IMG/VR virus record: IMGVR_UViG_3300033074_000806
Location: 32,001 to 96,000 of that record
Strand: one strand, 5' to 3'
Length of the DNA stretch: 64,000 bases
DNA from: a virus
Taxonomy: Duplodnaviria; Caudoviricetes
The position numbers and the translations under genes are program-made. Within the stretch, counting starts at the first letter, position 1. The number at the start of each line of letters is the position of its first letter. The notes under the pieces were generated by a model that was not told the origin of the DNA, did not search any database, and saw only the letters and a list, made by a program, of their open reading frames with translations. Below, in pieces: positions 6,494 to 25,804 of this stretch.

Positions 6494-7189
6494 ATGGCTA
6501 GTTCACAAGCTCAAAGAGGAATAGCTCCTTCTGGTGCAGGTAGAAGCGCGGCCTCCTTCCAAAAAACCTATAACTCCTTTTCAGGGGTTGATATGGTTGT
6601 AACGTTTGGAGGTAAAGTTATAGGCGAGTTGCAAGGCCTATCCTATACAATACAACGCGAAAAAGCTCCGATATACACTATGGGTTCAGCTGATGCTAGA
6701 TCTTTCTCTCGTGGAAAGAGAGGTATCGCTGGATCTGTTGTATTCGTAGTTTTGGATCGTTCCGCTCTACTTGAGACCATGAGAGATGTTCCGTATATTG
6801 CTAACAAGTATGATATTCCACTTGGATTTGCAATAAATGATGTAGACATTCCAACTATAGAAATTGGAACAGGTCTAATCGGTTCCGCTAGCGGCTCTGC
6901 AAATATAACTATCTCAAGAATAGTTATAGATAAAGTTCTCGCTAGACCACAATATCTTGACCAGGTTCTACCTTTCGATATAGTCATTACTGCGTCCAAT
7001 GAATATGGAGCATTTGCTAACATGAAAATTCATGGTGTCGAAATTTTGAATACTGGTTCAGGCATGTCTATTGATGATATTACAACAGACGAAGCATGCA
7101 CATTCGTAGCTACTTCTATAACTCCTTGGAGCAACCAAGGATTTATTCGAACCACGAATGGCGGAACTTCAGCTGAGATAATAACCTAA
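6494..7189 (+). CDS. major tail tube protein
   Basis: SFSGVDMVVTFGGKVIGELQGLSYTIQREKAPIYTMG...SFSRGKRGIAGSVVF...PFDIVITASNEYG...GMSIDD...TFVA. Follows the sheath and has a strong RBS. Confidence 0.8.
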   Translation: MASSQAQRGIAPSGAGRSAASFQKTYNSFSGVDMVVTFGGKVIGELQGLSYTIQREKAPIYTMGSADARSFSRGKRGIAGSVVFVVLDRSALLETMRDVPYIANKYDIPLGFAINDVDIPTIEIGTGLIGSASGSANITISRIVIDKVLARPQYLDQVLPFDIVITASNEYGAFANMKIHGVEILNTGSGMSIDDITTDEACTFVATSITPWSNQGFIRTTNGGTSAEIIT

Positions 7190-9128: not shown

Positions 9129-9761
9129 ATGCGAAGTCCGGAATTAGAACTAGAACTGCTCATGCTCCGTCAAGAACATGAGCATTTGTTTTTTATAGGC
9201 GCTGGAGAATTTGAGTGCATAATACGTCCATTGACGTTGGCCGAGATCAAAATTTTATCATCAACTGGAGCATCTTTAAGAGATGATGATATTAATGATT
9301 GGATAGTCTCTAGATGTTGTCTTTATGCCACTAATGGAAAGCAGAACCTGTTTACTGTGGCACCTGCCGGCGTAGTTGATTTAATCGCAAAAGGCGTAGT
9401 AAGCATATCAAAATTTCAATCTGAAGAAGATGTAATAGAAGGACTTACTAAAGCAAGATCGGTATTAAATAAATTAGAGAATCAAATAATGTTGGTGCTT
9501 TTGTCTACCTTCCGTAACTTAACTCCTAAGGATATAGATGATATGACATTCTATTCACAGATGAAGCACCTTGCTCTAGCCGAAGCTATTTCTGGTAAGC
9601 CACTTCCAATAGGTCAGAAAGTAAAGAAAGGTCAGAAACTTCTCTCTCCAGAAGCAGCCGCAATTCTATCTGAAAGCGTTGCTGATAAGCCAGATATAGA
9701 AGGTGATAATAAGAGTTTATCACAGTTTTTAACTGGCCGAGAGAGATTAAGTCGTGGCTGA
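9129..9761 (+). CDS. putative tail assembly chaperone 2
   Basis: IIRPLTLAEIK...AGVVDLIAKGVVSISKF resembles chaperone 1. The LTPKDIDDMT motif is typical of chaperone C-terminal parts. Precedes the tape-measure-position gene. Confidence 0.55.
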   Translation: MRSPELELELLMLRQEHEHLFFIGAGEFECIIRPLTLAEIKILSSTGASLRDDDINDWIVSRCCLYATNGKQNLFTVAPAGVVDLIAKGVVSISKFQSEEDVIEGLTKARSVLNKLENQIMLVLLSTFRNLTPKDIDDMTFYSQMKHLALAEAISGKPLPIGQKVKKGQKLLSPEAAAILSESVADKPDIEGDNKSLSQFLTGRERLSRG

Positions 9762-12700
9762 TTCGTTTAATCAAGAAGCGAATAATCAAAAAGCTGAGAA
9801 CTCAGGTATACTTACCTCTATTCTCGCCGGCCTTGGGGTTATAGGCCTAGGTCAAATAATTTATGGTCGCGCAGGAAAAGGAAACTTAATTGCTGACCTA
9901 CTGCACTTTACAGGGAATACTCTACGCGGCAAGGGCATAGATCTAAAGTATGCTGCTAACGCTGGAAAGAGCAGGCCTACTAGTGGAGCATCCGCAGGAG
10001 CTCGCACTGTATTAGATACTAGCATTGATGTTAGAACAGGCGCCTTAAGGTTAGATGATCTAAGTATAGTTAAAGATCTAGTCTATCAGGCTAGGGTTAT
10101 TGGAGCAAGTTCGGCATCAGACCAAAGGAGCGCTTTAACAGAGCTCACTAAAAATGCTATTGCTGCTAGGTATAAACAATCTAACGTAGTATCATTTTTT
10201 GGACAAAAGCTAGAACGATTAACTGTTGGCGAAGTCCTAGCAGATCAAAAAAGATTTCAACAGTCTATAGGCAAAAATAGCTGGGAGGTTATTAGATCAG
10301 CAGAAGAGCGTGGAATAATCAAAAAAGATTATATCCTCGATACTAGAATATTTGCTACATCAAAAGGAATAAGAGATACTAGACTAAAACCACTTGGTAA
10401 GTCAATATTAAAAAATGTAGACTTTCTAGGGCTAAGTTCAGTTGTCAAAGCAGTTACAATTGGAGCTGATCAAAGATTTGGTATTCTTCCTGGTTCTGCT
10501 GGTGGACCACTTAAATTCTTTATTGATGGCGATATATACTCTTTCTCAAGAAGCAAGGAAGGAGTATTAAAGACTAATAAAGTTCCAGGCAAGTTTATAC
10601 TTCGAGATGCAAATGATCCTCTACACGTAGCCACAAGACTAAGATCTGGAGAGGCATATGTAGAAGATCCTAAGCCAACTAATCTATATAATAAACTACA
10701 GTCAGCGCTCGGTATAGGAACAGCGTATCGAAATAGAGACTCACTGTTTACTAGTATATTTATTAATCCAATAAAACGGCTTAGAGCTCTAGAAACTGGT
10801 GAGGGTATACTATATAGAAAGCCGTATAAGAAAACAACTTCGGCTGCGGCTGAAGCTGCTTTTGGAGACATTGCCCCAGAAGCGTTTGGAGCTGATAATT
10901 ATGTAAAAACTGCAGGACAGCAAACACCAAAGCTATCTGAACTTAAATTTTTAGATAGGCTAAAAGTAACATTTGGTGTTCATGATGAACTAGCAATAAT
11001 AAAAGCTAGGTCCTATAGAGAAAAACTTCGATTTAATAAAGTCTTAACCAACACAGATTTAGTTGTTCCACGGCCAACTGGTAGAGTAAAAAATGTTGAT
11101 ACATTCTTTGCTAGTAAGCTCAGTGGTCAGGTCATAGACGCTGCTAACTCATATACTGGCGCTGGTGAAGTTACAAATAGACTTAAGTCAAAATTCTATA
11201 CTGCAAGAGCTGGACTCGGTAATAAAGTCCTTGATTTTACCAATTATGCTATTACAAGACTTAACAGTCTTGCAAGTGGCTCGTTAGCTGGTATTGGTTT
11301 CAAGGTTAGTGGCAGTATAAAAACTAATCTATTTAGATTAGCAGGAATACCGCTTGCCTATGAGGGCATAAAAGAAACGGCCGGCTACTTAGATTATCTA
11401 TCAGAGTCTACTATAGGAGTATCTCCTTTAAAATTATTAGGAGATGCCTATGCTACAGCTAGAGTAGCTCAACAGAAGTTTAGGGAAATAACTGGAATTC
11501 AGCAATTAATGAAAACTGCTGAAGAGGATTTTCCAGGAGCCGTTAATAGCGAACTAGGATTCTTTGGTAGAACTGCTGCTGCACCATTTTTAACTTTCAT
11601 GAAGGGAGTTAAATCTGGATTAGGTGTCAAAAAATCTGGTATACTAGCTGGCGTAATGGAGTTTTTATTTGGAGGCTCTTCTCCAGAACAAACATCAGAA
11701 GAATTAAGTAAAGAGTATTCTGGTATAACAAAGGTTCCAGTTAGACGCGGAGCCCTTTGGGGAATGGGATATCAGCCATTTTTCGGAGGCGATATACAGT
11801 ATTATGACTATAGTTGGTATTACAAAATGCAATCCGACTATAAAACTAAATCACTGTATGGTTCTCGTGAAGAATATTATACAAAGCATGCTAATGTCCT
11901 AGGTATACCACTTCCAACCCCTTCAAACCTATTTGGTATACGTAATTTATTTAATAACTATGCTTTAGAAGAGGCCAACTACTATAGAAGACCATATCAG
12001 GAAACTGCTGGTATGTTCGATGAATTCCCTATTTTTGGGCCTATGCTTTCTGCAACTGTTGGTCAGTTAATAAAACCAACTAAGAAGATGCATGTATCCG
12101 AGCTATACGGATTACCAGCTCAAACTGCTAGCCTAGTAGATAGAACATTGCCACTAAACTCTGCTAAGCGCCTAGGAATTACAGATATACCAGTAACAGA
12201 AATGATGCTACAGGACAGTAGCGATCCATTAGTTAGATTGCAGCAACAAGCAGCAATCGCAACAGAGCCTCTAGGTATCTATCAATTTATCCTTACTTAC
12301 CTAGGAGTTAATTTAAAGTATAATCAAGCCAACGATCCAGCTTCTGCTTCTATAATGGGAAGCGCCGGCAGAGAGCTGTATGACTCTAATCTTGGAGGCT
12401 TCTTTGGCCAAACTGAGTTTATTCGTCGCTTCTTCCCATCAGAAAAGTATTTAGCATCAAAACAGCGGCAATTATATAATCCACTTAGAAACCTAATGCC
12501 AACCTGGTTGCCTGGCATAGGCAGTGAAGAAAAATCTGATCAAGACTACTTTATGGATTTTCTACATGGAGATCCATATGCTAAGCTAGAATCTGGCGAC
12601 TCTCGATTACCTGGAGTGGGTTATGAGGCATTAAATCCACTCTACTCTAATATGCCTGGCGTGTATTCAGATGTAGATAGATTTTTGATACTATCAGACG

Positions 12701-14031
12701 TTGCCCCATATAGCACTGCTTATCAAAAATATCTAGCTAAAATTGGGAATCCTGAGAGATATGCTCCGTATTGGCGCGATAAATTAAAAGCAGCAATAAC
12801 TCAAAAGGATACTATTGTTAATCAGTTGTATCAGTATGAAAGAATAAAGCCAGGTATAAATGATTTAAATAGTAAGACTAAAGCTGGCGGATTCTATCAA
12901 ATGCTGCAGAAGGGATGGGATTCGTTAACACACGATGTCTTAGCAGAAATTCCATATTTTGGTAGTAAGTTCGCTCCATTTAGAGATGCTTTAGAAAGAT
13001 ATGAAAAAGAACAGATATATGGAGATAGCTTTGCTGATTGGAATAGACCCTGGGAAACTATAGTTCGGCCAGCTATTTATGATACTGCAAGATCAAATCC
13101 AGTATATGGGGCTGCTAAGGGTGCTATAATCGGCGCCCTAATGAGCAATGCTATTCCAGGAGTAGGCGGTTCATTGTTTAACCCTGTTGTAGGTCTTAGA
13201 AATTCAGCAACTGCTATACCATTCTTTGGAGCTGTTGGCGCAGCTTTAAGCTTAGGTAGATCAGCTATTACCGATCAGCATTTCGTTCCGCCACATAAAC
13301 AAAGCGAAATTGAAGCTCAAGACTATATGGATAGAGTTGTTTACGCAAAGGCTAGATCTTTTGAAATAGCGGCAACAGAGATGGGCGATAAAGAGCTTGC
13401 CAGCGGCTATGCCCGTCTAGCTGGAAAAACACTAGTTGGAGCAACTAGCCAACGTGGAACAAAATCAGCTTTAAACTCCTTTGATAGAAAGTATTTTGAT
13501 ACTTTTGTAAATAGTGAAGAAAGCGGAAGATCGGAATTACTAGCAAGATTGCCACAATATTATGGGCACGCGCTCAATAAAGTCTGGTCTAATGACTATG
13601 GCACAGAGCGTCAGCACGATTTAGAGACATTAGAATACTTTAGCAATAACGCACCACCGTCTACAGATTCATTAATATGGCACCCATCTGTTCCAACTTC
13701 TGCTTTGAAGATTAAAATGATTCAGGGCGGAATTAATGGCGTTAGTGATAACCTACATCGATTTGGATTTTACGAAAGTCAGGGCCTAGAGGCGGCTGAT
13801 AGATTCCCAAATGTCAATTTTATGACTACTAGTAAAATTAGCTCGCCCAATTTTAACTCGCTAAAAAACGATATACAGATTAATTTAAGACGACTAAATC
13901 CATTTGCTAATCCTGAGAATGTAAAGATCAAACAAATACACAATAGCCAATATAATCAAGCTTACGAGATAAGTCAAAAAATTGATAGAAAGCAAGAAAC
14001 CTATAGATACATGAGCGATATAATGAGATGA
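9754..14031 (+). CDS. large tape-measure/ejection-type virion protein (1425 aa)
   Basis: GTG start. Follows the chaperones. Largely helical and basic, with Gly-rich hydrophobic segments at 9805-9867 and 13108-13257. Conserved-looking blocks VPVRRGALWGMGYQPFFGG and GDPYAKLESGDSRLPGVGYEALNP...ILSDVAPYS. Confidence 0.55.
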   Translation: MADSFNQEANNQKAENSGILTSILAGLGVIGLGQIIYGRAGKGNLIADLLHFTGNTLRGKGIDLKYAANAGKSRPTSGASAGARTVLDTSIDVRTGALRLDDLSIVKDLVYQARVIGASSASDQRSALTELTKNAIAARYKQSNVVSFFGQKLERLTVGEVLADQKRFQQSIGKNSWEVIRSAEERGIIKKDYILDTRIFATSKGIRDTRLKPLGKSILKNVDFLGLSSVVKAVTIGADQRFGILPGSAGGPLKFFIDGDIYSFSRSKEGVLKTNKVPGKFILRDANDPLHVATRLRSGEAYVEDPKPTNLYNKLQSALGIGTAYRNRDSLFTSIFINPIKRLRALETGEGILYRKPYKKTTSAAAEAAFGDIAPEAFGADNYVKTAGQQTPKLSELKFLDRLKVTFGVHDELAIIKARSYREKLRFNKVLTNTDLVVPRPTGRVKNVDTFFASKLSGQVIDAANSYTGAGEVTNRLKSKFYTARAGLGNKVLDFTNYAITRLNSLASGSLAGIGFKVSGSIKTNLFRLAGIPLAYEGIKETAGYLDYLSESTIGVSPLKLLGDAYATARVAQQKFREITGIQQLMKTAEEDFPGAVNSELGFFGRTAAAPFLTFMKGVKSGLGVKKSGILAGVMEFLFGGSSPEQTSEELSKEYSGITKVPVRRGALWGMGYQPFFGGDIQYYDYSWYYKMQSDYKTKSLYGSREEYYTKHANVLGIPLPTPSNLFGIRNLFNNYALEEANYYRRPYQETAGMFDEFPIFGPMLSATVGQLIKPTKKMHVSELYGLPAQTASLVDRTLPLNSAKRLGITDIPVTEMMLQDSSDPLVRLQQQAAIATEPLGIYQFILTYLGVNLKYNQANDPASASIMGSAGRELYDSNLGGFFGQTEFIRRFFPSEKYLASKQRQLYNPLRNLMPTWLPGIGSEEKSDQDYFMDFLHGDPYAKLESGDSRLPGVGYEALNPLYSNMPGVYSDVDRFLILSDVAPYSTAYQKYLAKIGNPERYAPYWRDKLKAAITQKDTIVNQLYQYERIKPGINDLNSKTKAGGFYQMLQKGWDSLTHDVLAEIPYFGSKFAPFRDALERYEKEQIYGDSFADWNRPWETIVRPAIYDTARSNPVYGAAKGAIIGALMSNAIPGVGGSLFNPVVGLRNSATAIPFFGAVGAALSLGRSAITDQHFVPPHKQSEIEAQDYMDRVVYAKARSFEIAATEMGDKELASGYARLAGKTLVGATSQRGTKSALNSFDRKYFDTFVNSEESGRSELLARLPQYYGHALNKVWSNDYGTERQHDLETLEYFSNNAPPSTDSLIWHPSVPTSALKIKMIQGGINGVSDNLHRFGFYESQGLEAADRFPNVNFMTTSKISSPNFNSLKNDIQINLRRLNPFANPENVKIKQIHNSQYNQAYEISQKIDRKQETYRYMSDIMR

Positions 14032-17000
14032 AAGAAATAATTGATAGGTCTCGTCAAACGTTTAATAAACTGTTCGATACTATAGGTAAATTCGGCAGTA
14101 AGTATGATGTTTATAACTTTACTGCATTCGATACTGAAACAAACGCGCTATTAAAGGGCGATGCTAAACTAGGTGCCCAAACAGATATCTTTAAGCAGGG
14201 CGCATCTGGCATAAGAACTATATTTGCTAGAAAGGCAGTTTTTGATAGATTTGGTAATGTAAAGGATGAATCAGCAGTCCATTTATTGATGGGTGGTGGT
14301 AAGATATCTACCCAAGGTGAAAAGTTCTTCAAAGATGTTGGGCTAACAATAGATAGGATTCTTCCTAACTTTGAAACCATCCCCAGTGAATATAGAGAAA
14401 GATTAAGAGGTAAGGCCTTAACTAATAGATCTCTTAACTATTTAGAGGCTGTTCAAAAGAAAACAGGTAAGAAATTATTGACAACTGAGGGCGAGCTAGC
14501 AGATGTTCTAAATAATATGCTAGGACATTCAACTAATACTATGAATGTCGCTATTGGACATAACGCTAGTAGATTCGATTTGATGATGGCCAGAGGTGTT
14601 AAAGGATTTAAGGGTGTAGGCAGCTCTACACATATCCTAGATACTTATGAGCTAACCACTAGAATGTTCCCTGAGCTAGCAGTAGAAAAGACTGGCGCCC
14701 TAGAACTAGATAATCTTATATCTTTAATGATGTATGAGTCTGGTAATAAGACTAAAGCTAAAATAAAAGATCCACTAAGACAGGCGACAGCCACTGAAGT
14801 TGATGCTCTAAAATTCTATGGAATTGATAATGTTCCACAAGAATTTAAAGCAGTATCAAAAATGTTTGGCGGTTCAACTGGAGTTCTTGCTGCCGGCGCA
14901 CATAGTGCCGATGTTGACTCGTTACGGTCTATGGCGATACTACATGCTGCTATGCTAAGAGCAGAAACATCTAAATCAGCATCAGAAATCTTTCATGGTT
15001 ATCTAACTGAGATCGGTGTCAAAGAACATCTATCTGCTATAGATATAATGAGTCGTATTAAGAAATTTGATCCTCAGCAAGTTTCTAGATACATGAATGT
15101 TGGAGGATATAAAGGTAAGATAAAAGACCTATTTGATATACTACAATCAGGACAAACTAGTATAGATGATTTAACTATTTATTCCAGATCTGGAATGAAT
15201 GAGTTATTTTCTGAATTAGGTAATCGATTTGGAAAAGGATTTGTATCCTCGTTTGCCCCAACAGCTAGAGCACTAGCAGAAGGGATGGACGCTGGAGTTT
15301 TCATGCTACGTGGAAACTCTCTTAAGTTTGGTAGGTTGGGAGACGCAGCATCTTTTATTTCCCTACCAACGCAGAACTTTAATAAGTTAGGCAATGGATT
15401 AATAAATATGGGCGATAAGCTTCGCTCAGTGACTAATCTATTAAGCCTAGGAAACAATAAAACAACAGTAGTCCCTTTTAGCCGATTCTTCTATTCTAAT
15501 ATGAATAGAATAATTGGAAGTGGTTTAAATCCTACTGATAGCAATGCTGCATATGCACTGCCAAATATAGTTAGACAAACGCTAGGAACTAAAGTATTTG
15601 GAACTAAATCACTGGGCTCCTTATTAGGATCTCATCCAACAGAGATGGGATTACCGAACTTCTCTGCTATTACAGCAAAAGCTGGAGTCTTACAGGTTAT
15701 AGAAAGTAATGCGCCCATTGTCCAGCATTATAAAAACCTCCAACAAGGAATACAATTAAGAAACCTAAGCATTGGGAATAGCCTTTCTAACTTTAAGAAA
15801 GCTAGAAAAATAATCGAAAGCAGCATCTCTGGTATCAGTTCTGAGCTTAATAGGCTAGGCATCGGCGCACAAGCAGCTTTTTCCAAAGCTGAGTCCCTAT
15901 TAGATGATGGATTAAAGTTAACTGTCGGCAGCTTATTAAGTGATATGACTATTCCAGAGGTCAGAGGCTTTGAAAAAGGTCGGCTAAGAAGACTTGGAAC
16001 AATATCCAATAGCCATACTGCGCGGTTAAGAAAACTTGGCAGACCTGTAGGTCCGTCTGTAATTTCTGAAAAGTGGGAATCAGCTGGCATAAGAAGCTCA
16101 TTCCAAGGCGGCGTATTTGTTGCTGAGTTTGATACGATGTCAAATTTAAGATCTTCATTTGAAGATTCAGCTGTATATGCTAGCAGAACTGGTTTGAATC
16201 TATTAAAGCAAAAAAGATATGCAGGTAGCGTAACTTTAAGAGACTGGTCAGCTAGAGACGTAAGTTTATTAAATCAATATTTAGATCCAACAGGAGCATT
16301 TAATTTAGAGCCTGGTATCGATTTTAGACCAACAGATGAGTCTGGTTATTTTAAAGTTCGTAATAGAAGAATGTTCTCTGATAAACGCAGAGAAATCGCT
16401 GCTGAATTATTTAGTGGAAAATCTAAAATTCAAAGACGTGTATTAGAGCAAATTATACGAGGCAGAGCAGCTTTGTCCCAAGCTGTGTTCACAGAAGATG
16501 CAATACAACTAAAATTTGCCACTAGAGCGTTTACAGGCAGTAGATCAGATAGCATCTTACTGGGCCCGTTGGGATCTCTTAGAGCCACAGTAAATGGATT
16601 TGTTGGCGGACGCATTTCTAAACTGATGCGCTCAATTGGAGCTGACTTCATCATGTCAGCAGAAAACTTAAAAGGTGCAGCCCCAGCTGATTTAATTACA
16701 CAGCATAGAATTTCATTGGTTCAGAGAGAAGGTGCCTTAGATGAGCTAGTTGGTTTCTTTAATTCTCAACGAGATGGATTTAGACTCGCACCGTCTAGTG
16801 TTCCTGGTGTTCGCACTCTAGTAATGCCATCTGGCGTAACAAAAGATGAGGTTCTAAAGTTTACTGAGCTATTCAAAACTCATTTAGTTAAAACTGCCGC
16901 TGAGCATTTGGATAAAGATAGAACACGTAGAACCTTAAAAATAATACGTGGGTATGATGGTATAAGAGCATCAGGCAATGTCATAAGAAAGATAGCTAGC

Positions 17001-19436
17001 ATAGGCATGAAGGGCATAACTTCTGCTTCTAGACTATTCTTGACAGATATACATCTTAGATCCGATGCATCTGATGTTAACAGATTAAATAACGTTAGAT
17101 GGAATGCCAGCCATATAAATCAGTATAAGCAATCCTTAGCAGCTACAGGAATCTCTGGTAACTCTGTATCTAGATTCTTAGAACAAGCTATGGCTAGAGC
17201 GACTGGATTTAGCTTATCAAAGGGCGTATTAAATCCTGGCCGACTAGGCTTTATTGGTCAAGCAATGACTGGCCAATTACCTTCTGATGCCTATATCCTA
17301 CGATTAGGAGCCAATAAGCAATTCTTTGATCAGCATGGAACCGCATATTCATTCCTGCCCAAGGTTGGTTCTGGACACGTATTAACTCCAGAAAGCTTAA
17401 AAGGAACAATCTACGATACTAACTATTCAGATCGTCAATTTTTTATCGATTTTGGACAAGCTGAACGATTCTCAGTTAGAGGAAGAAAAGAAACACAGGT
17501 ATCTACTAGATACTTACCAGTCCCAAATTTAAGAAAAATACTAGGGGTTAAGGTCGGACCAGGAGGTGCTCATGTATCTTCTTCGTCACTGGCTGGTAAA
17601 GTTTTTAGAGCTATAAGAGCTTATTCTAGTGAAGGTAATTTAGATGTAGTTCACACTCTTAAAACTGGTGGCAGATATTCTGTTAGAGACACTATATCGG
17701 CTGCTATGGATAAACTTATATCCAGCATACCAGGTAAGAAAGGACTAGCAAAGTCACTTACAACGTTCTCCATAAAAGAATCTGTAAACGCTAGATTGCT
17801 AGGTAAAGCACCCACTGGAAATTTAACCGACGCGTTTATTGCTGAACTAGATTCGCGGCAATTTGCTGAATGGGCTCATGTAAAATTTGGTAAGGAGAAA
17901 GCTCAGAAGTTTTTAGCAATGGCGGAAAATGATGCCCTTTATGGATTCGTAAGGGCAGATCCTATGCAAAAAGGTGGCCATGCAGCTATCATAAAATATA
18001 AGCTGATAAATCGTGGCAGGAATCCTAATGCAAAAATGGATGTGGCATTAGATCCTTATCTAGTTTCTAGACTAAATAGAGACGTTGATAAGGATGCTGT
18101 CAGATTATTGCTATTCGATCAAATAAGTGCCAAGGATTTGGAGCTTGATTTTAATCAACAAGTTGCTGCCCATGCTGTAGACTTTAATACCTATCTAAAG
18201 AATCTATCTAATACAAAAGCACCATCCATTAATGGCATACTAACCAACTTTATAGAGTCGGCAACTAAGGGTTTTCAACAAAGCTCAGACACACTAACAG
18301 CCCACCTCGGCATGAAGATGAATGCCAGCCTTGGATATACTCTATCTAAGGCTCCAGAAAGTATACTGAATAGGGCTTTAGAAGCTAAGTCTCCTGAAGA
18401 CTTAATTAATATACTAACTAGTAGAGGCGTAGATAGAAATTCAATTAATGATGAGATCATTAAAGCACTTACTGAACAAAGCAAAGATAAGACCGCAGCT
18501 GCTATAGAACTATTCCAGTCCTTTAAGCAGGCTGGAGTTAAGAAGGGTGCAGTTAAGACTGCAATGTATGATTTAATTGAAGAGGTTACTGGACTAATGG
18601 AACGAATTCGTTCTGGTAGCAGTAACTTAAGTGAAGCTATTGATGTTAGCTCTAAGGTATTTACTAACTTTTTTCAGCAGATAGCTGGCGAAGATTTAAT
18701 AAGACCTAGCTCCGCTGCGAAATTTTTGACTGATAATATTCCTGAAAGTGCCGGTAAGCTAGTTGGAGAAACTTATGGTAGAGCTTTTTTTGCTGTCTCC
18801 TCCTTAAGAGGAAAGGTATCTGATGCTTTATCTATGACTAGGGCAAATGCGCCAGATACTAAAGAAATTTTAGGAGCAACATTAGAAGCAGATCAGACTT
18901 CTCTATTAGATGATGTAATGGGTGAGTCAACAGTTGGAGATGAAGTTCTAGAATCATCTACGCAAAAGCTGAGAGCAAGTTTATCATCTAGAGCCGGTGA
19001 GTTTATTGGAACACAACTTGGTAATGCCAGAAACTTCTTGCGTTCTGATGGTGGCAGGTTAGCTCTTTGGGGCGCTGGATTATTAGGAGCGTATAGCTTA
19101 TTCTCTGCTATGACTTCTAATCCTGACGAACTTGCGCCACCTCCGTTACAGCTAAATCAGACTTCTGCGCCATTGCCTCCACCTCCAATGTTGCAGCAAC
19201 CGATGGACTATGGAATACAAAATGTTCCCCAGCTTGATCAAAAAATTGCTAGGATAAGTCCAACACATCCTGCACATATGCCGAGACAATCAAAAATTAG
19301 ACACTATACGCGCCACAGCCCTGGATACCCTTCCGCAAATATCAATGGCCGTATAGAAGATGATACTAGTAGTATGAATAGTGCTATTATCTCTCAGAGG
19401 ATGAAGCACATTGCAAATAGCGATTTCGTGTATTAA
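14028..19436 (+). CDS. putative virion single-chain two-barrel RNA polymerase fused to an N-terminal DEDDh 3'-5' exonuclease (1802 aa)
   Basis: Exonuclease motifs: FDTET (D35,E37), GHNASRFD (D184), HSADVD (H292,D297). Beta-like: FVAEF...FEDSAVYAS (E712,D713) and ADFIMS. Beta'-like: YLPVP (1162), GKKG (1236), RADP (R1309), LDPYLVSRLNRDVDKD (D1352/1354/1356), bridge-helix-like KMNASLGY (1430). All occur in canonical order. C-terminal hydrophobic helix and poly-Pro. Confidence 0.75.
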   Translation: MKEIIDRSRQTFNKLFDTIGKFGSKYDVYNFTAFDTETNALLKGDAKLGAQTDIFKQGASGIRTIFARKAVFDRFGNVKDESAVHLLMGGGKISTQGEKFFKDVGLTIDRILPNFETIPSEYRERLRGKALTNRSLNYLEAVQKKTGKKLLTTEGELADVLNNMLGHSTNTMNVAIGHNASRFDLMMARGVKGFKGVGSSTHILDTYELTTRMFPELAVEKTGALELDNLISLMMYESGNKTKAKIKDPLRQATATEVDALKFYGIDNVPQEFKAVSKMFGGSTGVLAAGAHSADVDSLRSMAILHAAMLRAETSKSASEIFHGYLTEIGVKEHLSAIDIMSRIKKFDPQQVSRYMNVGGYKGKIKDLFDILQSGQTSIDDLTIYSRSGMNELFSELGNRFGKGFVSSFAPTARALAEGMDAGVFMLRGNSLKFGRLGDAASFISLPTQNFNKLGNGLINMGDKLRSVTNLLSLGNNKTTVVPFSRFFYSNMNRIIGSGLNPTDSNAAYALPNIVRQTLGTKVFGTKSLGSLLGSHPTEMGLPNFSAITAKAGVLQVIESNAPIVQHYKNLQQGIQLRNLSIGNSLSNFKKARKIIESSISGISSELNRLGIGAQAAFSKAESLLDDGLKLTVGSLLSDMTIPEVRGFEKGRLRRLGTISNSHTARLRKLGRPVGPSVISEKWESAGIRSSFQGGVFVAEFDTMSNLRSSFEDSAVYASRTGLNLLKQKRYAGSVTLRDWSARDVSLLNQYLDPTGAFNLEPGIDFRPTDESGYFKVRNRRMFSDKRREIAAELFSGKSKIQRRVLEQIIRGRAALSQAVFTEDAIQLKFATRAFTGSRSDSILLGPLGSLRATVNGFVGGRISKLMRSIGADFIMSAENLKGAAPADLITQHRISLVQREGALDELVGFFNSQRDGFRLAPSSVPGVRTLVMPSGVTKDEVLKFTELFKTHLVKTAAEHLDKDRTRRTLKIIRGYDGIRASGNVIRKIASIGMKGITSASRLFLTDIHLRSDASDVNRLNNVRWNASHINQYKQSLAATGISGNSVSRFLEQAMARATGFSLSKGVLNPGRLGFIGQAMTGQLPSDAYILRLGANKQFFDQHGTAYSFLPKVGSGHVLTPESLKGTIYDTNYSDRQFFIDFGQAERFSVRGRKETQVSTRYLPVPNLRKILGVKVGPGGAHVSSSSLAGKVFRAIRAYSSEGNLDVVHTLKTGGRYSVRDTISAAMDKLISSIPGKKGLAKSLTTFSIKESVNARLLGKAPTGNLTDAFIAELDSRQFAEWAHVKFGKEKAQKFLAMAENDALYGFVRADPMQKGGHAAIIKYKLINRGRNPNAKMDVALDPYLVSRLNRDVDKDAVRLLLFDQISAKDLELDFNQQVAAHAVDFNTYLKNLSNTKAPSINGILTNFIESATKGFQQSSDTLTAHLGMKMNASLGYTLSKAPESILNRALEAKSPEDLINILTSRGVDRNSINDEIIKALTEQSKDKTAAAIELFQSFKQAGVKKGAVKTAMYDLIEEVTGLMERIRSGSSNLSEAIDVSSKVFTNFFQQIAGEDLIRPSSAAKFLTDNIPESAGKLVGETYGRAFFAVSSLRGKVSDALSMTRANAPDTKEILGATLEADQTSLLDDVMGESTVGDEVLESSTQKLRASLSSRAGEFIGTQLGNARNFLRSDGGRLALWGAGLLGAYSLFSAMTSNPDELAPPPLQLNQTSAPLPPPPMLQQPMDYGIQNVPQLDQKIARISPTHPAHMPRQSKIRHYTRHSPGYPSANINGRIEDDTSSMNSAIISQRMKHIANSDFVY

Positions 19437-19438
19437 AT

Positions 19439-22400
19439 ATGACAAAGCAAAAAATTAATAGCACCGACATAAAGCCTGACTATCTTACTAACGCTATAAC
19501 GTATGGAAATTTGAAGTCATCGTTAGATATTTCTAACGGATGGGCTGGGGATGAACTTAACTCAGCAGAATTTTATCAACGAGCAGTTGATAGGGTTATG
19601 GAATATGATAATTATTTAATAGACCAGGGCCCATCTGATTCCGACTCAGCTTTAGTTATTGGTCCATTAAGATACACCTATTCTGTCCAGTCTATAGAAG
19701 TTGCTGAGCAAAGAGCAATAAGCGCACCAGCCACCACACGTAGTAATAAGCCAGTCCTAGTTGACTCGGGTTCTGCCTACCAAAAGGCCAGTGTTACATT
19801 TACTTTTACAGGCGAAGAAGAGGTAAACAAGCATCTTAGGGCGCTGATAATACTATTTAAAGTATGTCCTATAATCTCTATAGAAAATGAGATGCTATCT
19901 AGGATGTGGTCCCCTAAGAGTGCCAAAATAATTGAAGATGTTAAAAGAAAGCTTTCTACTGTAAATGCTACGTCTGATGACCAAGCTTTAATAAATCAAA
20001 GCTATGAGGATTTTAAAGAAGCAGTAAGAACTGGTAAAAATTTGACAGACTATTTAAAAACAAATAGTAACAAAGCTTTTAACGATAGTGAAGTTAAAGC
20101 CATTATAAATGGTATATTTACAGATAGTATATTCAGTTTAAATGAACTTAATTACATTCCTGTTTGTTTAGAAGATCTATCAATACAGACTATACCTGAA
20201 ATTCCTGGTGCCTTAAATGTTTCTTTAGGCATATCACATATTGACGTATCATCTTCTACTGAGACTGGAGTCATAACTTATCTAGGTGCCAAGCCAGGAA
20301 CATTTGAGGTTAATCCTAGAAGAGCTCATTGGCTTAAAACTTGGATTAGAAAAATACTAAACTCAGAATATAATTCTGCATTCCCTAGGGTAGGGGTGGG
20401 TGGAGATTATGAAGGAGCCTTTAGCTACTTTAAGCTATCTTTTTATGACAAGGCTATTGGTAATCTATTGCCGTTAACTGGAAAGCCCGAGGACTTATCT
20501 ATTAATTCTGATTCACAGTCGAAAATATTGACACAAGCAATCAGTATATCAAATAAATTTGCATATCAAAGAATTGTAGGAAAGGCCCTTCCCTGTGTCC
20601 AGCATTTAGGGCTAACAGCAAACTCATTAACTTTAACCATCCAGTTTAGTGATTCAGAAACATCATTTGATCACTTTATGCAGTTTAAAGAGTTATCTGA
20701 TAAACTTTTTAGATCTGATTCTATAATAGATAGAACTATGGGATGGGCAGTAAGTTCACCTTTAGTTCAGCTATTAGGTCATAAAGGCGCTAACGTGTTC
20801 TTGCCGTTGAATATAAATGTCAACACAACGGAGCTCCCTGGTGTCAAAAATTGCACAATAACCTTATTAGAATCTAACGTTGACTTTAAAGAAAATACTC
20901 AGATCCTATTAGATGGTGGAGGAACTCCTTACAACGACTTAAAAGCCTTTTTACTTGGTGGTCAGGCAATTACAAGATACGACGATCTAACACAAACCAC
21001 TGATAAAAGAATAACAAGCTCGTTTATAGGGCTGTTCAATTATGATCAGACATTTAGAAACAATGTTACACCAACTAATTTAGCTACTTTAATATTAGAA
21101 CGGTCACCCGAATATCAGGCCCATTCAGTCTTATTCCCAAAGGATAGTAATGGATTTGAAGGAATTATAAATAGAGACTCTATAAGAGCTATGCTTTTTA
21201 GCTCTGTCCTAAGTAACTCAGTGGAGTTAAGAGAAGCTCTATTGAAACTTCCACTAGCTACTGGAAAAATATCAAATAGCAATCTTACACTTTCTAGCTT
21301 AGATGCATTCTTAATAGGTTTTTCTGATATTGGACTTTTTGGTCCAGGATCATTAGAAAGCGGCAAAGTAGGAACTCTTAAAGATGTGGCTTCCAAATTA
21401 GCTACAGAGCTATTTGAAATCAGCTCAGTCGAAACCCTTGAAATAACAGAGCTGATATTGCTATCTTTATTCGGTCTTCCAGAGAATGCCATAGCTGCTA
21501 TAAATAAAATAAAAGGATCAAAGTTAAAGCTATCAAACAAATTTAGAGAGGCTATATTTGATGTAATAGCAGCTAGACCATCGCCAATATCTTTGCTGTC
21601 TAAAACATATGATAGAGATGGACTATACATATCATTTAATATACTATATCTTGAGTATATAGCCAGTAAAGATCTTTACCCATCCTTTGATAAGGATGAG
21701 TCATTTAGTTCTGTAAATGATAGTGCATGGCGCCAATCTTGCTATAAAGATATAGAGCTTCCAAGCTATGAAGAACTTTTTGGTGATAGCTGGAGACATT
21801 TCGCTCCTACATATGATGATATTGGAATTAGTTATTATAGCTCTCGCGGAGCTTCTAAGCCTATTAACACTAATGAGAATAAACAAAATAACATTAGTGT
21901 GTCGGCCAAAGATAAAGTCCCGCCCTATGTTTGGTTTTATAACAAACGATTAAAAAATGAACTACGAAAGGGACTAGATTCAAATGCTCAGGGATATCTG
22001 TCTCTAGCAGAAAAAAGATATCTATCTATGAATCTTAGAACTATAAGGCAGTCTGAGCTTTTAAGAAGCCTAGATAAAAATAAATCAGCCGAACTAGAAA
22101 GAATTGCAAATGGTGAATCCTTATCTAACAAGGAAGTTAAAGGCACTGCAACTAGACTTGTAGAAATTATTACTCAAGCGTATTCAGATGACTTAGGAAA
22201 AATAGACATTGGCAGGTTCCAAGAAGATTTGGAATCTACTAGAGATTTAGTTAGACAAGAAGATAAGCTTTCTGCCTATGACTTTAATAACAGTAAGGTT
22301 AGTAAGTATAAAGTTTTCTATCAAGAGTATCTACATCCAAGTTCTCCAAAGAAAATTAACCTATATTTTACTACTACAGGAACACAAGATGATGGACCTT

Positions 22401-25400
22401 GCGGATATGTAAGCAGCAGGTTCCAAGTATCACCAATTGCTGGCGCTGCCTATATTAGGGTAATGCATGAATTAAAATACACTATACAGAAGAATGGATC
22501 TTTAAAGGATGCCTCGCCATTACATGACGAAGCTATGACTACTGTTGGAGCTGGTAACTTAGATGTTCAAAGACGTAATCAACGTGAAACTACACTTGAA
22601 ACTGTTAAAAGTTCTTTGTCTCAAATTCCAGATGACTATAATAGTATGTCAAAATTATGGCCGGCTGCTAAAGTTTATTTCCTAGAACGTAGAGGAAATG
22701 ATCTAATAGCTGACGATGTTTATTTTGCCACAGATAGCATTCTATCTATAGATATTACTGATGATAAAGATGATGCCCCATTGGCTGTTATAAAGATAGC
22801 GGATCCACTAAGGCTAATTCAAAACTCTACATTTGGCACGGGGAATATAGTATCTCAAAAGAATCTAAGTGTAGACGGAGATAAGGTATCTCCCGTCATT
22901 CTTGGAACTAGAAAAGCGAATCAGGAAGGCTTTATAAAGCAGCGTAAAATAGAACAAGGGAGAGCCATACAGATTAGATTAGGCTATGGAGCTAATCCAG
23001 ACCATCTGCCGATAGTGTTTACTGGTAGAATAACAGAGGTCGAGCCAGGTGATGAACTTACTATTGTGGCACAGGGCTGGAAAGCTGAGTTAATAAATAG
23101 ACAAGTCAATTTTTATTCTAACAATAGAAAGGTCTGGGGTGCTAAAGACTTAGTTATACAGACTATTCAGTTAGCAGATCCTGATGGAATGGGCCAGCAT
23201 ATTCCTGAAAAAGAAGCAAACGCAATAATTTCCAAGCTTAGAAATAATCAAGAAGGTGTAGTTGCTAACAGTCTTAATAACGCTGTAGATACTATCCTAG
23301 TAAAGGATTCTCCTAGCATCTTAACAGATATAACAAGGTTATTGCAACTAGATACATTAGACATTTATAATCCTGATGCAAGAAAGCCAGGTATCGATAC
23401 TAGATTTAAAAACATTTGGTATCCAGATATGTCAAAGACTATCAATAATTTCTTTAAATGGAGACAGTTCTTTGGCATACACGGGCCTGATTTTATAAAT
23501 GATTATTGGCTAGTCCCAATACAGCCTGCCTGGGATGTTATAAAAGAAGCCTCTAGGCACACTTGGAACTATATAGCTCAAGTTGTCCCATATGATGGAG
23601 AGTCTACTTTATTCTTTGGGCATCCAGACCAAATGTATTATTACACTAGAGGCCAAAAAACTAAGATAGATGAATGGAAAAAGTATGCTTCTCAGAAGCA
23701 AGAAGAATTATTTGACAAGGTCGTAAGATTAGTTTACGACTTTAAAAAGTGGGATGATAGTTCACCTACTATCACTTTTGAAGATATGCAGGTGCGCGCG
23801 TATATATTGCAAACTGGACATCGAATTAAAATCGGTATAGATTTTGCTGACAAAGTAGCTGATGATATAGTCGCTGGTAAGTTCAAGTATAGTTACAAAG
23901 CTTTTAAGGAAGCAGCTAAAAAGGATCCTCGCGTTATCCAAGCTATAAAATCTTCTGGAGTTACCAAAGCCAATATTGCAGAACTAGATAACATACTCTC
24001 GGCTAATAGCATCCCGTTACTACTTTATCTATTCTATGGTATAAAGCCGAATCGATTATTTTTGTGGCCCAATTATGATAAGGTAATTAGAACCTTACTA
24101 GGTCCACTAAATGACAGCACTATAAATCTATATAATGAAATTAAAAAAGTTGACACCAGGCTATTGGAATTAGTCAATGCGGATGTATTGGCCTCAGGTG
24201 TTTCAAGCTCATCTTTACTTAAGGCCAGGGATGTTCTGGACGAACTTAGATTTCAAATAAACACTACAAAAAGGCATACAATAGATGCTAAGGACTTTCT
24301 AGACCAGCTGAGATTTCATCTAAAGACAACAAGCTCTTCATTGTTAGACTTATTATCTAATCTAGATAAGACTACTAAGCCTAAGACTGTTGGCACTAGG
24401 TTCACAAGAGAGGTCAAAGTATTCTCCGCAAAAGACTTTAGTGCCATAAAAGCCATCAAAGCTTTAACAGCTGCAATTGAATTATCACTGGGTTCAAACA
24501 AAAATGTAGCCTTTACATCTATATACCCTACTCCAGATACCGCTACTATCGAAGAATTGCTAGACCAAAGCGATTATTTATTTAAAGCTTTTGTTGGATA
24601 TTTCCTACAGTTTTTAAAGTCTACCAACCAAAAGGAAATAACCGCAGTTGGCACATCTATAAAAGACTCTACTAACTTTCCTAATATGAAAGTGTTTAGA
24701 GTCCATCATTATATTGATAGTGACAAGGATATTATAGAGAATAATATTGTTGCTACTACAACACAGATGTGGAATACTGTTGTAATAAATAGACCAGCAG
24801 AAAATCCTGCTGATACTACTATTACCGATGGCACGCAACTAAACCAAGGAACCCAAGTAAAAACGACTGTTAACTGGGTCTATTGGCCTAAGCCGGCGAT
24901 CAGTAAAGTTATTGGATTGCAATTCCACCCTGGCATCTCTTTAGCTAATAAGAAGGTTAAATTATGCACAGAACTAAACTGCATAAGTGATGAACTAGCT
25001 GCAAAATTGGCATGTAATAACCTAGCTGAAGGTATCAAAAAAATGTATCGCGGGACTCTATCTATTAGAGGAAGATATGTAAAGCCTTACGATCGCATTG
25101 TATTAAATGATAGGTTTAATGGAATGAAGGGGCCGCTAGAGGTGGAGAGCGTAATCCATCACTTTAATCCTCAAGTAGGCTGGGTAACTAATATTATTCC
25201 TCAAGCTGTGTGCGATTCCAATCCTGGAGCAGCAGTAATTCAAACTGCTATTATAGAAGCTAATTTTGAGCGCGTTATGAATGTAGTAGATACATTTTTT
25301 AATGCAGCATATCTTGGGACTATCTTAGCAGCTCCGGGAGTAGGAACAGCCCTAAAGGCTGTTACTAAAGGCGTTCCGGCTGTATTTAACACTAGCCTAA

Positions 25401-25804
25401 AAGGATCGTTTGGGATTATAACGAATTCTATTAAATCGCTATCATCAAGCCTTGCCAGGTTTAATTACAATCCAATTACGGCAGCCAGCTTCTTAGCTAA
25501 TAGATATCGTGGAACAGCTAAACTATTATTTACCTCGTATCTAATAGAACAAGTAGTAGGATCTATAGCACAACATAGTTCTAATTTTTTGATAGCAACT
25601 TCTTGGGCAGAAGGTGCATCGGATAAGGATAAAACCGCTCAGCTTCCTGTTATATTATCGCCACTGATTTTTAATGGGGCGCCATGGACCGCTGGTCTAG
25701 AAGCTGATGATATCTTATTCAATGTTCCATTTTACGATACATACTATAACTTTCATGATCTAAAAACTGCCTTTAATGATTATATAGGAGCTTTAAATAG
25801 ATGA
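19439..25804 (+). CDS. giant baseplate hub protein (T4 gp27 / Mu gp44 / P2 gpD-like) with N-terminal tube-like domains (2121 aa)
   Basis: GRAIQIRLGYGAN...IVFTGRITEVEPGDELTIVAQG, STLFFGHP and MYRGTLSIRG...VKPYDRIVLND...EVESVIHHF...GWVTNI are hub-family motifs. Confidence 0.75.
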   Translation: MTKQKINSTDIKPDYLTNAITYGNLKSSLDISNGWAGDELNSAEFYQRAVDRVMEYDNYLIDQGPSDSDSALVIGPLRYTYSVQSIEVAEQRAISAPATTRSNKPVLVDSGSAYQKASVTFTFTGEEEVNKHLRALIILFKVCPIISIENEMLSRMWSPKSAKIIEDVKRKLSTVNATSDDQALINQSYEDFKEAVRTGKNLTDYLKTNSNKAFNDSEVKAIINGIFTDSIFSLNELNYIPVCLEDLSIQTIPEIPGALNVSLGISHIDVSSSTETGVITYLGAKPGTFEVNPRRAHWLKTWIRKILNSEYNSAFPRVGVGGDYEGAFSYFKLSFYDKAIGNLLPLTGKPEDLSINSDSQSKILTQAISISNKFAYQRIVGKALPCVQHLGLTANSLTLTIQFSDSETSFDHFMQFKELSDKLFRSDSIIDRTMGWAVSSPLVQLLGHKGANVFLPLNINVNTTELPGVKNCTITLLESNVDFKENTQILLDGGGTPYNDLKAFLLGGQAITRYDDLTQTTDKRITSSFIGLFNYDQTFRNNVTPTNLATLILERSPEYQAHSVLFPKDSNGFEGIINRDSIRAMLFSSVLSNSVELREALLKLPLATGKISNSNLTLSSLDAFLIGFSDIGLFGPGSLESGKVGTLKDVASKLATELFEISSVETLEITELILLSLFGLPENAIAAINKIKGSKLKLSNKFREAIFDVIAARPSPISLLSKTYDRDGLYISFNILYLEYIASKDLYPSFDKDESFSSVNDSAWRQSCYKDIELPSYEELFGDSWRHFAPTYDDIGISYYSSRGASKPINTNENKQNNISVSAKDKVPPYVWFYNKRLKNELRKGLDSNAQGYLSLAEKRYLSMNLRTIRQSELLRSLDKNKSAELERIANGESLSNKEVKGTATRLVEIITQAYSDDLGKIDIGRFQEDLESTRDLVRQEDKLSAYDFNNSKVSKYKVFYQEYLHPSSPKKINLYFTTTGTQDDGPCGYVSSRFQVSPIAGAAYIRVMHELKYTIQKNGSLKDASPLHDEAMTTVGAGNLDVQRRNQRETTLETVKSSLSQIPDDYNSMSKLWPAAKVYFLERRGNDLIADDVYFATDSILSIDITDDKDDAPLAVIKIADPLRLIQNSTFGTGNIVSQKNLSVDGDKVSPVILGTRKANQEGFIKQRKIEQGRAIQIRLGYGANPDHLPIVFTGRITEVEPGDELTIVAQGWKAELINRQVNFYSNNRKVWGAKDLVIQTIQLADPDGMGQHIPEKEANAIISKLRNNQEGVVANSLNNAVDTILVKDSPSILTDITRLLQLDTLDIYNPDARKPGIDTRFKNIWYPDMSKTINNFFKWRQFFGIHGPDFINDYWLVPIQPAWDVIKEASRHTWNYIAQVVPYDGESTLFFGHPDQMYYYTRGQKTKIDEWKKYASQKQEELFDKVVRLVYDFKKWDDSSPTITFEDMQVRAYILQTGHRIKIGIDFADKVADDIVAGKFKYSYKAFKEAAKKDPRVIQAIKSSGVTKANIAELDNILSANSIPLLLYLFYGIKPNRLFLWPNYDKVIRTLLGPLNDSTINLYNEIKKVDTRLLELVNADVLASGVSSSSLLKARDVLDELRFQINTTKRHTIDAKDFLDQLRFHLKTTSSSLLDLLSNLDKTTKPKTVGTRFTREVKVFSAKDFSAIKAIKALTAAIELSLGSNKNVAFTSIYPTPDTATIEELLDQSDYLFKAFVGYFLQFLKSTNQKEITAVGTSIKDSTNFPNMKVFRVHHYIDSDKDIIENNIVATTTQMWNTVVINRPAENPADTTITDGTQLNQGTQVKTTVNWVYWPKPAISKVIGLQFHPGISLANKKVKLCTELNCISDELAAKLACNNLAEGIKKMYRGTLSIRGRYVKPYDRIVLNDRFNGMKGPLEVESVIHHFNPQVGWVTNIIPQAVCDSNPGAAVIQTAIIEANFERVMNVVDTFFNAAYLGTILAAPGVGTALKAVTKGVPAVFNTSLKGSFGIITNSIKSLSSSLARFNYNPITAASFLANRYRGTAKLLFTSYLIEQVVGSIAQHSSNFLIATSWAEGASDKDKTAQLPVILSPLIFNGAPWTAGLEADDILFNVPFYDTYYNFHDLKTAFNDYIGALNR

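Follow-up and report, generated by a model that had tools for sequence, protein, structure and literature searches.

A probable single-chain two-barrel RNA polymerase in the tail module of a contractile-tailed phage

Cellular RNA polymerase (RNAP) builds its two double-psi beta-barrels (DPBBs) from two subunits, and virion-carried two-barrel RNAPs have, to our knowledge, been shown experimentally only in crAss-like phages, P23-45-like Thermus siphoviruses and phiKZ/AR9-type jumbo phages. In Thermus phage P23-45, the tape measure protein and the virion two-barrel RNAP form a single fusion protein, gp96 (PDB 8H2M/8H2N; Chaban et al. 2024, PMC10770324), its partner being the non-virion RNAP gp64 / P74-26 gp62 (Chaban et al. 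2024, PMC10770324). Phage phi14:2 packages a single-chain two-barrel RNAP, gp66, in its virion (Drobysheva et al. 2021; bioRxiv 10.1101/2020.03.07.982082). The present work concerns a 64,000-nucleotide stretch of viral DNA (the window, bases 32001-96000 of the 130,587-bp record IMGVR_UViG_3300033074_000806, linear and estimated to be 68% complete), in which one open reading frame (ORF) of 1802 amino acids (aa), the target, very probably encodes, as judged from family conservation and a predicted structure, a one-chain, highly diverged relative of the cellular enzyme.

Conservation and predicted fold of the core

Homologues were collected with HMMER, run exhaustively on 1.84 billion representatives; the query, aa 650-1550, returned 16 clusters, all unnamed, 15 of them at 23-37% identity over the matched stretches. 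Conservation was read from an 18-sequence alignment of the target family, whose members range from 1439 to 1966 aa. A preliminary description of this DNA had matched eight strings with beta and beta' motifs and had proposed a highly divergent single-chain two-barrel RNAP; all eight were found in the translation of 14028-19436 (+), and the proposal is supported by the conservation in the family as well as by the predicted fold. The features of the core are the following (window coordinates, strand, description).

14028..19436, +, target ORF, 1802 aa, no cysteine
15951..17069, +, beta-like (second-largest-subunit-like) module, aa 642-1014
16158..16169, +, FEDS within FEDSAVYASR, aa 711-714, candidate equivalent of Rpb2-D837 / beta D814
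16503, +, IQLKF
16545, +, SDSILLGPLGSLRAT, quoted string located in the target translation
16572..16589, +, GSLRAT, aa 849-854, with R852 as the sole conserved basic residue of the loop
16641, +, ADFIMS
17184..18869, +, beta'-like (largest-subunit-like) module, aa 1053-1614
17508..17525, +, RYLPVP, conserved
17733..17744, +, GKKG, candidate switch-2 motif (G1239 invariant, K1237 about 80%)
17778..18119, +, beta'-like DPBB, aa 1251-1364
17949, +, VRADP, R1309 not conserved
17955..17981, +, ADPMQKGGH, aa 1310-1318, P1312 and Q1314 invariant, place of R-x-P without a conserved Arg
18078..18095, +, RDVDKD, aa 1351-1356, invariant R-D-x-D-x-D, candidate Mg-binding triad
18306, +, LGMKMNASLGYT, quoted string located in the target translation
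18312..18383, +, helix aa 1429-1452 with conserved LGYT, candidate bridge helix by inferred role
18513..18548, +, FQSFKQAGVKKG, Q1501 and K1506 in at least 90%, trigger-loop assignment unproven

About 0.3 DxDxD motifs are expected by chance in 1802 aa at 5% Asp (an estimate), and the motifs stand above chance because they are conserved in 15 distant homologues, at 18-35% identity, not because of the single DxDxD. In fact, R1351-D1352-x-D1354-x-D1356, P1312, Q1314 and G1239 are invariant in the family alignment (the Asp triad in 18 of 18 sequences), at least 90% of the family has H1318, Q1501 and K1506, and some 80% of it keeps RYLPVP, K1237, R1256 and the G-Y of LGYT. Conservation of DxDxD and of FED had been put forward beforehand as a check on the proposal; with the triad invariant, position 713 of FEDS also proved to be Asp or Glu in every member covering it (15 of 15). 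In view of this family-wide conservation the motifs are genuine family signatures, ordered as in beta and then beta'. Both the order and the model make D713 a candidate equivalent of Rpb2-D837 / beta D814, and RYLPVP resembles the LPVPP..RP segment of beta'/Rpb1. The GK.G motif stands before the barrel, where the switch-2 lysine is expected, and its equivalence, by motif only, would be with Rpb1-K332 of the GKEG segment, a residue that marks DNA-dependent two-barrel RNAPs (PMC2919709); counterparts of the funnel residues could not be picked out in the family.

An AlphaFold2 model of aa 640-1640 (window 15945-18947), built from the 18-sequence alignment with no templates, reached a mean predicted local distance difference test (pLDDT) of 75.7 and a predicted template modelling score (pTM) of 0.60. 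Modelling followed by a structure search, which the preliminary description had suggested, led to RNAP with both aligners. When Foldseek was applied to the PDB, all the listed matches were beta'-type chains, the top one being plastid RpoC1 8ras_D (E 3.9e-4); below it came the non-virion RNAPs of AR9 and phiKZ, with their beta' fragments, and many bacterial beta' chains. VIA-align, run separately from Foldseek against 48,161 representative chains, matched model residues 414-975 (aa 1053-1614) with largest subunits (Rpb1 9.3, A190 9.2, archaeal A' 8.9, African swine fever virus 8.8, M. tuberculosis beta' 8.4), the phage scores being 7.6 for P74-26 gp62 and 5.5 for P23-45 gp96.

In the model, a DPBB-containing second-largest-subunit-like module is followed by a largest-subunit-like one. 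The Asp triad (model residues 713-717) lies between a helix (704-710, aa 1343-1349) and a strand (718-723, aa 1357-1362), at the place of Rpb1 D481/D483/D485 and in a region that aligns to isolated DPBBs; it thus sits, as had been anticipated, on a barrel loop, the one leading from the helix to the last strand of the DPBB-aligned region. In the predicted structure this is the alpha2-beta6 loop, where beta' has NADFDGD. Moreover, LGYT is carried, in the AlphaFold2 secondary structure, by a 24-residue helix past the barrel, in the position expected of a bridge helix. Taken together, conservation and predicted fold argue for a beta-beta' fused two-barrel core with an invariant, putatively metal-binding triad.

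Among predicted viral structures in BFVD, the best matches were unnamed, 'minor tail' or uncharacterised phage proteins, followed by annotated RNAP subunits of phages and giant viruses. They included proteins of Acinetobacter phage vB_AbaM_ME3 (A0A172Q021, A0A172Q0S6) and Microcystis phage MaMV-DC (A0A075BUT7) as well as an uncultured-siphovirus 'minor tail protein' (Foldseek E 3e-11 to 6.5e-3). As the family profile found no match in the ME3 and MaMV-DC records, any kinship of these proteins to the family would be very remote, and they are to be taken as leads only. In the ESM Atlas, scores of at most 0.84 were obtained, with unnamed viral clusters.

Sequence comparison gave a very different yield. 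No Pfam match was found for the target or for the two giant proteins encoded on either side of it, and in PHROGs the target had one weak match only, to phrog_37419 of unknown function, over the Asp loop (E 0.004). Searches by tblastn with the target, the distant member P0012 and the conserved core against 50,697 phage records gave nothing meaningful, and megablast found nothing either. When the target and the family profile were compared with PDB sequences (phmmer for the target), noise only was returned (SH2/SH3 kinases, uL23), and Pfam PF00623, which matched 14 of 14 control genomes, had no match in this genome. A word-indexed homologue search, with a single sequence or a profile as the query, recovered two close relatives only, while a single-protein search for related loci in viral contigs recovered nothing. 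The family is therefore detectable only via conservation and predicted structure. As its motifs read, it would also fail the filter '[RK]xP x(20-100) DxDxD' of the P23-45 survey (Chaban et al. 2024, PMC10770324); of five motif variants of the family type, none is found in the supplementary tables of that study, where the DVDKD of the target appears once, in a phiKZ-type virion RNAP of an unrelated jumbo phage.

The tail-module locus and the terminal regions

All the large genes of the window lie on the + strand, and those of the tail module, together with the terminal regions of the target, are given below.

4877-6478, tail sheath gene (PHROG 16991, E 4e-51)
6494-7189, +, tube-like gene directly after the sheath gene (PHROG 9206, E 1.5e-52)
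9754..14031, +, upstream neighbour, 1425 aa, N-terminal transmembrane segment, no cysteine
14100..14927, +, probable DEDDh 3'-5' exonuclease domain of the target, with an insertion of about 130 aa
14127-14141, +, Exo I FDTET, aa 34
14556-14579, +, Exo II GHNASRFD, aa 177
14901-14921, +, Exo III HSADVDS, aa 292
15105..16097, +, N-terminal region common to the whole family, aa about 360-690
19059..19433, +, conserved C-terminal module, about 130 aa
19059-19112, +, Gly/Ala-rich hydrophobic helix of the C-terminal module
19137-19187, +, proline-rich stretch of the C-terminal module
19439..25804, +, downstream neighbour, 2121 aa
27446-28600, Baseplate_J / wedge gene (Pfam E 1e-22; PHROG 6, E 2.5e-35)

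The sheath, tube-like and Baseplate_J genes identify the virus as a contractile-tailed phage (myovirus); the PHROG 9206 label 'major head protein' of the gene in the tube position is probably a mislabel. Terminase, portal and major capsid genes lie upstream in the genome, and long fibre-like genes lie beyond the Baseplate_J gene. Three giant ORFs, of 1425, 1802 (the target) and 2121 aa, lie after the tube and small genes and ahead of the baseplate. Stop and start codons overlap (ATGA) where the target follows the upstream gene, and 2 nucleotides separate the target stop from the gene after it. A sigma-70 promoter and terminator scan around the target gene gave nothing better than shuffled sequence, and repeated 12-mers across the genome revealed no obvious promoter motif. 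Owing to the ATGA overlap, the 2-nucleotide spacing and the shuffled frequency of promoter- and terminator-like sites, the target belongs to the late tail operon.

This arrangement is kept at the loci of homologues down to about 20% identity, in the order sheath, tube, four small genes, a gene of about 1430 aa directly after them, the polymerase family and a gene of about 2100 aa, with an extra 937-aa gene before the latter in one locus (L006); loci long enough to show it (window, L001, L003, L004, L007) continue with Baseplate J. The preliminary description had placed the target in the tape-measure position. It does adjoin the probable tape measure, but that role itself suits the upstream gene better, because its length is nearly constant (1414-1458 aa in six syntenic loci) while that of the polymerase family varies (1439-1966 aa). 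The target was thus rejected as a tape measure, and the 1425-aa upstream protein, for which no Pfam or PHROG match was found, is probably the true one. Four of its six orthologues end in [SNQ]D[IM][ML]R, resembling the SDFVR/SDFVY end of the polymerase family. As for the 2121-aa protein, its residues 1748-1927 match PHROG 20474 (label endolysin, E 5e-33) and PHROG 8809, and it may act as a giant protein of the hub or tail-lysin type.

Cysteine is absent from all 18 family members and from all six orthologues of the upstream gene; the phage ORF average of 0.9% Cys would give about 16 in the target, and 6-10 are present in the downstream giant gene. Cysteine avoidance fits proteins which cross the envelope unfolded, though it does not prove ejection. 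The C-terminal module contains, besides its helix and proline-rich stretch, a (Q)PxDxGP motif and a terminal SDF-x-Y/R. The Gly/Ala-rich helix was not flagged at a strict hydropathy threshold; from its composition, the module is a candidate membrane-insertion or tail-incorporation element. The conserved place in the tail module, the lack of cysteine and this hydrophobic and proline-rich C-terminal module are the reasons for which we infer that the target is delivered in the virion.

At the other end of the protein, the motifs make a DEDDh exonuclease probable. All five DEDDh residues are found in the target (D35, E37, D184, H292 and D297), and the motifs are kept in the relative P0007 (31% identity, E 2e-40). 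RNase_T is Pfam-significant in two longer family members (P0013, 1.6e-17; P0019, 2.3e-15), and hhalign of the target clade against the RNase_T of these two gave a probability of 85% and an E of 5.8e-6, over the Exo II region only. In the target itself the exonuclease domain was not detected by Pfam (PF00929), and a second AlphaFold2 model (aa 1-700) is unreliable over the exonuclease region, with pLDDT below 50. The domain is accessory, since the shorter members of the family (1439-1557 aa) are without it, and we know of no described precedent for a DEDDh 3'-5' exonuclease fused to an RNAP. Between this domain and the core, aa about 360-690 were modelled, in part with confidence, as an alpha/beta region with a helical hairpin, for which no informative fold match was found.

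A 782-aa ORF outside the window (genome 5246-7594, - strand) carries RDP...GGDYDGDD and matches Pfam RdRP (PF05183) with an E of 2.9e-4, below the curated cut-off; its sequence makes it a candidate second, non-virion RNAP of the YonO/QDE-1 type. No relation between it and the tail-module family was detected by hhalign.

The other arm of the genome carries a DnaB-primase fusion and sugar-nucleotide enzymes, both outside the window. The former (1213 aa; genome 126751-130392, - strand) joins a Toprim/DnaG_N primase to a DnaB-type helicase and has intein-splicing and LAGLIDADG matches in its N-terminal half. The latter form a minus-strand cluster (genome about 110100-123300) of a UDP-GlcNAc 2-epimerase (E 6e-60), a DegT/DnrJ aminotransferase (2e-69), two NAD-dependent epimerase/dehydratases and a group-1 glycosyltransferase, and may be linked to Ser/Thr-Gly-rich virion proteins. 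Also outside the window, the portal (L013:2639-5722, + strand; residues 344-551) and a metallophosphoesterase (L010:14757-16658, + strand; residues 233-472) each have a segment of about 210-240 aa, and the fact that both segments match the same part of PHROG 85 (label: thymidylate synthase) suggests that they share an inserted element, for instance an intein or a homing module.

Proposed mechanism and alternative explanations

The data as a whole are best explained, and we consider this probable, by a single-chain two-barrel polymerase which is packaged in the tail, ejected into the host and used to transcribe the first phage genes. Both double-psi barrels would be united in one polypeptide, with the beta-like module (aa ~640-1015) preceding the beta'-like one (~1050-1615), and D1352/D1354/D1356 would hold the catalytic magnesium, aided by the acidic D713 of the first barrel. 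The polymerase would be made late, together with the tail proteins, and incorporated through its C-terminal module into the tail lumen or the baseplate interior, from where tail contraction would eject it in an extended state. It would then transcribe the first phage genes from the entering DNA, including that of the YonO/RdRP-like polymerase, which would in turn take over later transcription. The fused exonuclease could serve in RNA 3'-end trimming or proofreading, or in an attack on host nucleic acid.

A fuller picture can be drawn, which we put forward tentatively and regard, in all its parts, as doubtful: an undescribed injected transcription machine of contractile-tailed phages, in which the cysteine-free RNAP would thread the tail tube, be held by its C-terminal module at the inner membrane by the tape-measure channel, transcribe the entering genome and perhaps help to pull the DNA in. 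In some clades the fused DEDDh domain would proofread RNA 3' ends or degrade host nucleic acid, and the active site would be re-wired, with an arginine beside the triad and an arginine for the two lysines.

The active site is also where some evidence against a working polymerase is found. Ruprich-Robert and Thuriaux (PMC2919709) list eight residues as invariant in all two-barrel polymerases; the target family has five of them (the Asp triad, the proline and the other barrel's acidic residue), and three, the R-x-P arginine and two lysines, are not present in canonical form. The position two residues before P1312 is occupied by A, V or N, against the arginine of R-x-P (Rpb1-R446, P448). VRADP had been read as carrying this arginine, a reading that has to be given up: R1309 stands at -3 and not at -2 from the proline and is not conserved, being found in few members (three close relatives and P0007). 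The segment from IQLKF to ADFIMS had been equated with the GDK...RHGNKG loop of beta, and here one conserved basic residue is indeed present (R852, with RR at this site in most of the distant members, the register across gapped rows being judged by eye), but the conserved Lys pair of the basic loop (Rpb2-K979/K987; beta K1065/K1073) is absent. R1351, next to the triad, and R852 are candidates for standing in for the lost arginine and lysines. The losses favour an ejected structural or pilot tail protein of two-barrel descent, in which polymerisation would have been lost and which would bind or thread DNA, as a scaffold, at the entry channel; so do the tail-module location of the gene, the conserved hydrophobic module at the C-terminus and the failure of every sequence method to recognise an RNAP. 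Nevertheless, the strict R-D-x-D-x-D and the acidic residue of the other barrel are kept at about 20% identity, which is hard to explain without catalysis, and the invariant R1351 and the conserved R852 of the basic loop may be compensating, and such a scaffold seems unlikely to us.

We give slightly less credit to an active two-barrel enzyme other than a DNA-dependent transcriptase, that is, an RNA-dependent or primer-synthesising one (QDE-1/RDR-like) or a DNA polymerase of the PolD kind that would work on the genome as it enters. The resemblance to RNAP might even be spurious, arising from chance motifs and from a structure predictor drifting to a familiar fold, since the alignment is shallow (18 sequences), the Z and TM (template modelling) scores are moderate and sequence-based support is lacking. 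Such a coincidence would be very improbable: each of the two separate modules matches a different RNAP subunit, in the right order; the alignment to isolated DPBB domains falls exactly on the region around the invariant Asp loop; the motifs follow one another as they do in beta', and their secondary-structure placement fits it too; and two different aligners concur.

Relation to known systems

If the tail-packaged polymerase is real, it adds a lineage of mid-sized and large contractile-tailed phages whose enzyme is invisible to annotation (no Pfam or PHROG function; no BLAST match in 50,697 phage records), and the giant 'hypothetical tail proteins' of metagenomic myoviruses may encode host-independent transcription. 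It would also mean that the 'universally invariant' two-barrel catalytic set is open to re-wiring, with the two barrel lysines and the arginine of R-x-P replaced, which bears on the binding of nucleoside triphosphates and on motif filters such as '[RK]xP...DxDxD', by which the family would be missed. No description of the family was found in full-text searches limited to open-access papers and preprints or in the P23-45 supplementary tables.

The closest parallel is Thermus phage P23-45, whose gp96 is, like the proposed target enzyme, a single-chain two-barrel polymerase of the tail module at or beside the tape measure. There, too, a second and separate single-chain polymerase is present, and the injected enzyme makes the first transcripts, including those of the second polymerase, as is proposed here. 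The two phages differ in that gp96 is fused to the tape measure while the target is a separate gene beside it, and in that the target and its YonO-like protein, in contrast to the P23-45 pair, have no mutual similarity. The gp66 protein of crAss-like phage phi14:2 is likewise a giant single-chain two-barrel enzyme with a divergent DxDxD, found by motif and structure and encoded among large virion-protein genes; gp66 is virion-carried, as is proposed for the target. It belongs to a podovirus-like crAss phage, has DFDID, is a head cargo and lacks an exonuclease fusion, and no gp66 chain is among the structural matches listed for the target model, although the two may well be similar all the same.

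Enzymes of the QDE-1/YonO type have DYDGD and R-x-P, while the target has RDxDxD and is missing the R-x-P arginine. The target family moreover keeps the GK.G switch-2-like motif and the LPVP segment, typical of DNA-dependent multisubunit enzymes; the phage's own YonO-like protein is another gene (genome 5246-7594, - strand). The phiKZ/AR9-type virion RNAPs and the N4 virion RNAP follow the same strategy, a particle-carried injected polymerase for early transcription independent of the host, but the former consist of four or five polypeptides recognisable by sequence, and the latter is a right-hand (T7-like) polymerase of unrelated fold. The kind of enzyme is thus already known, a virion-delivered single-chain two-barrel RNAP such as P23-45 gp96 and crAss gp66, and what is new in this family is the contractile-tailed phage, the separate gene beside the tape measure, the re-wired catalytic residues, the exonuclease fusion of some members and the invisibility to sequence annotation.

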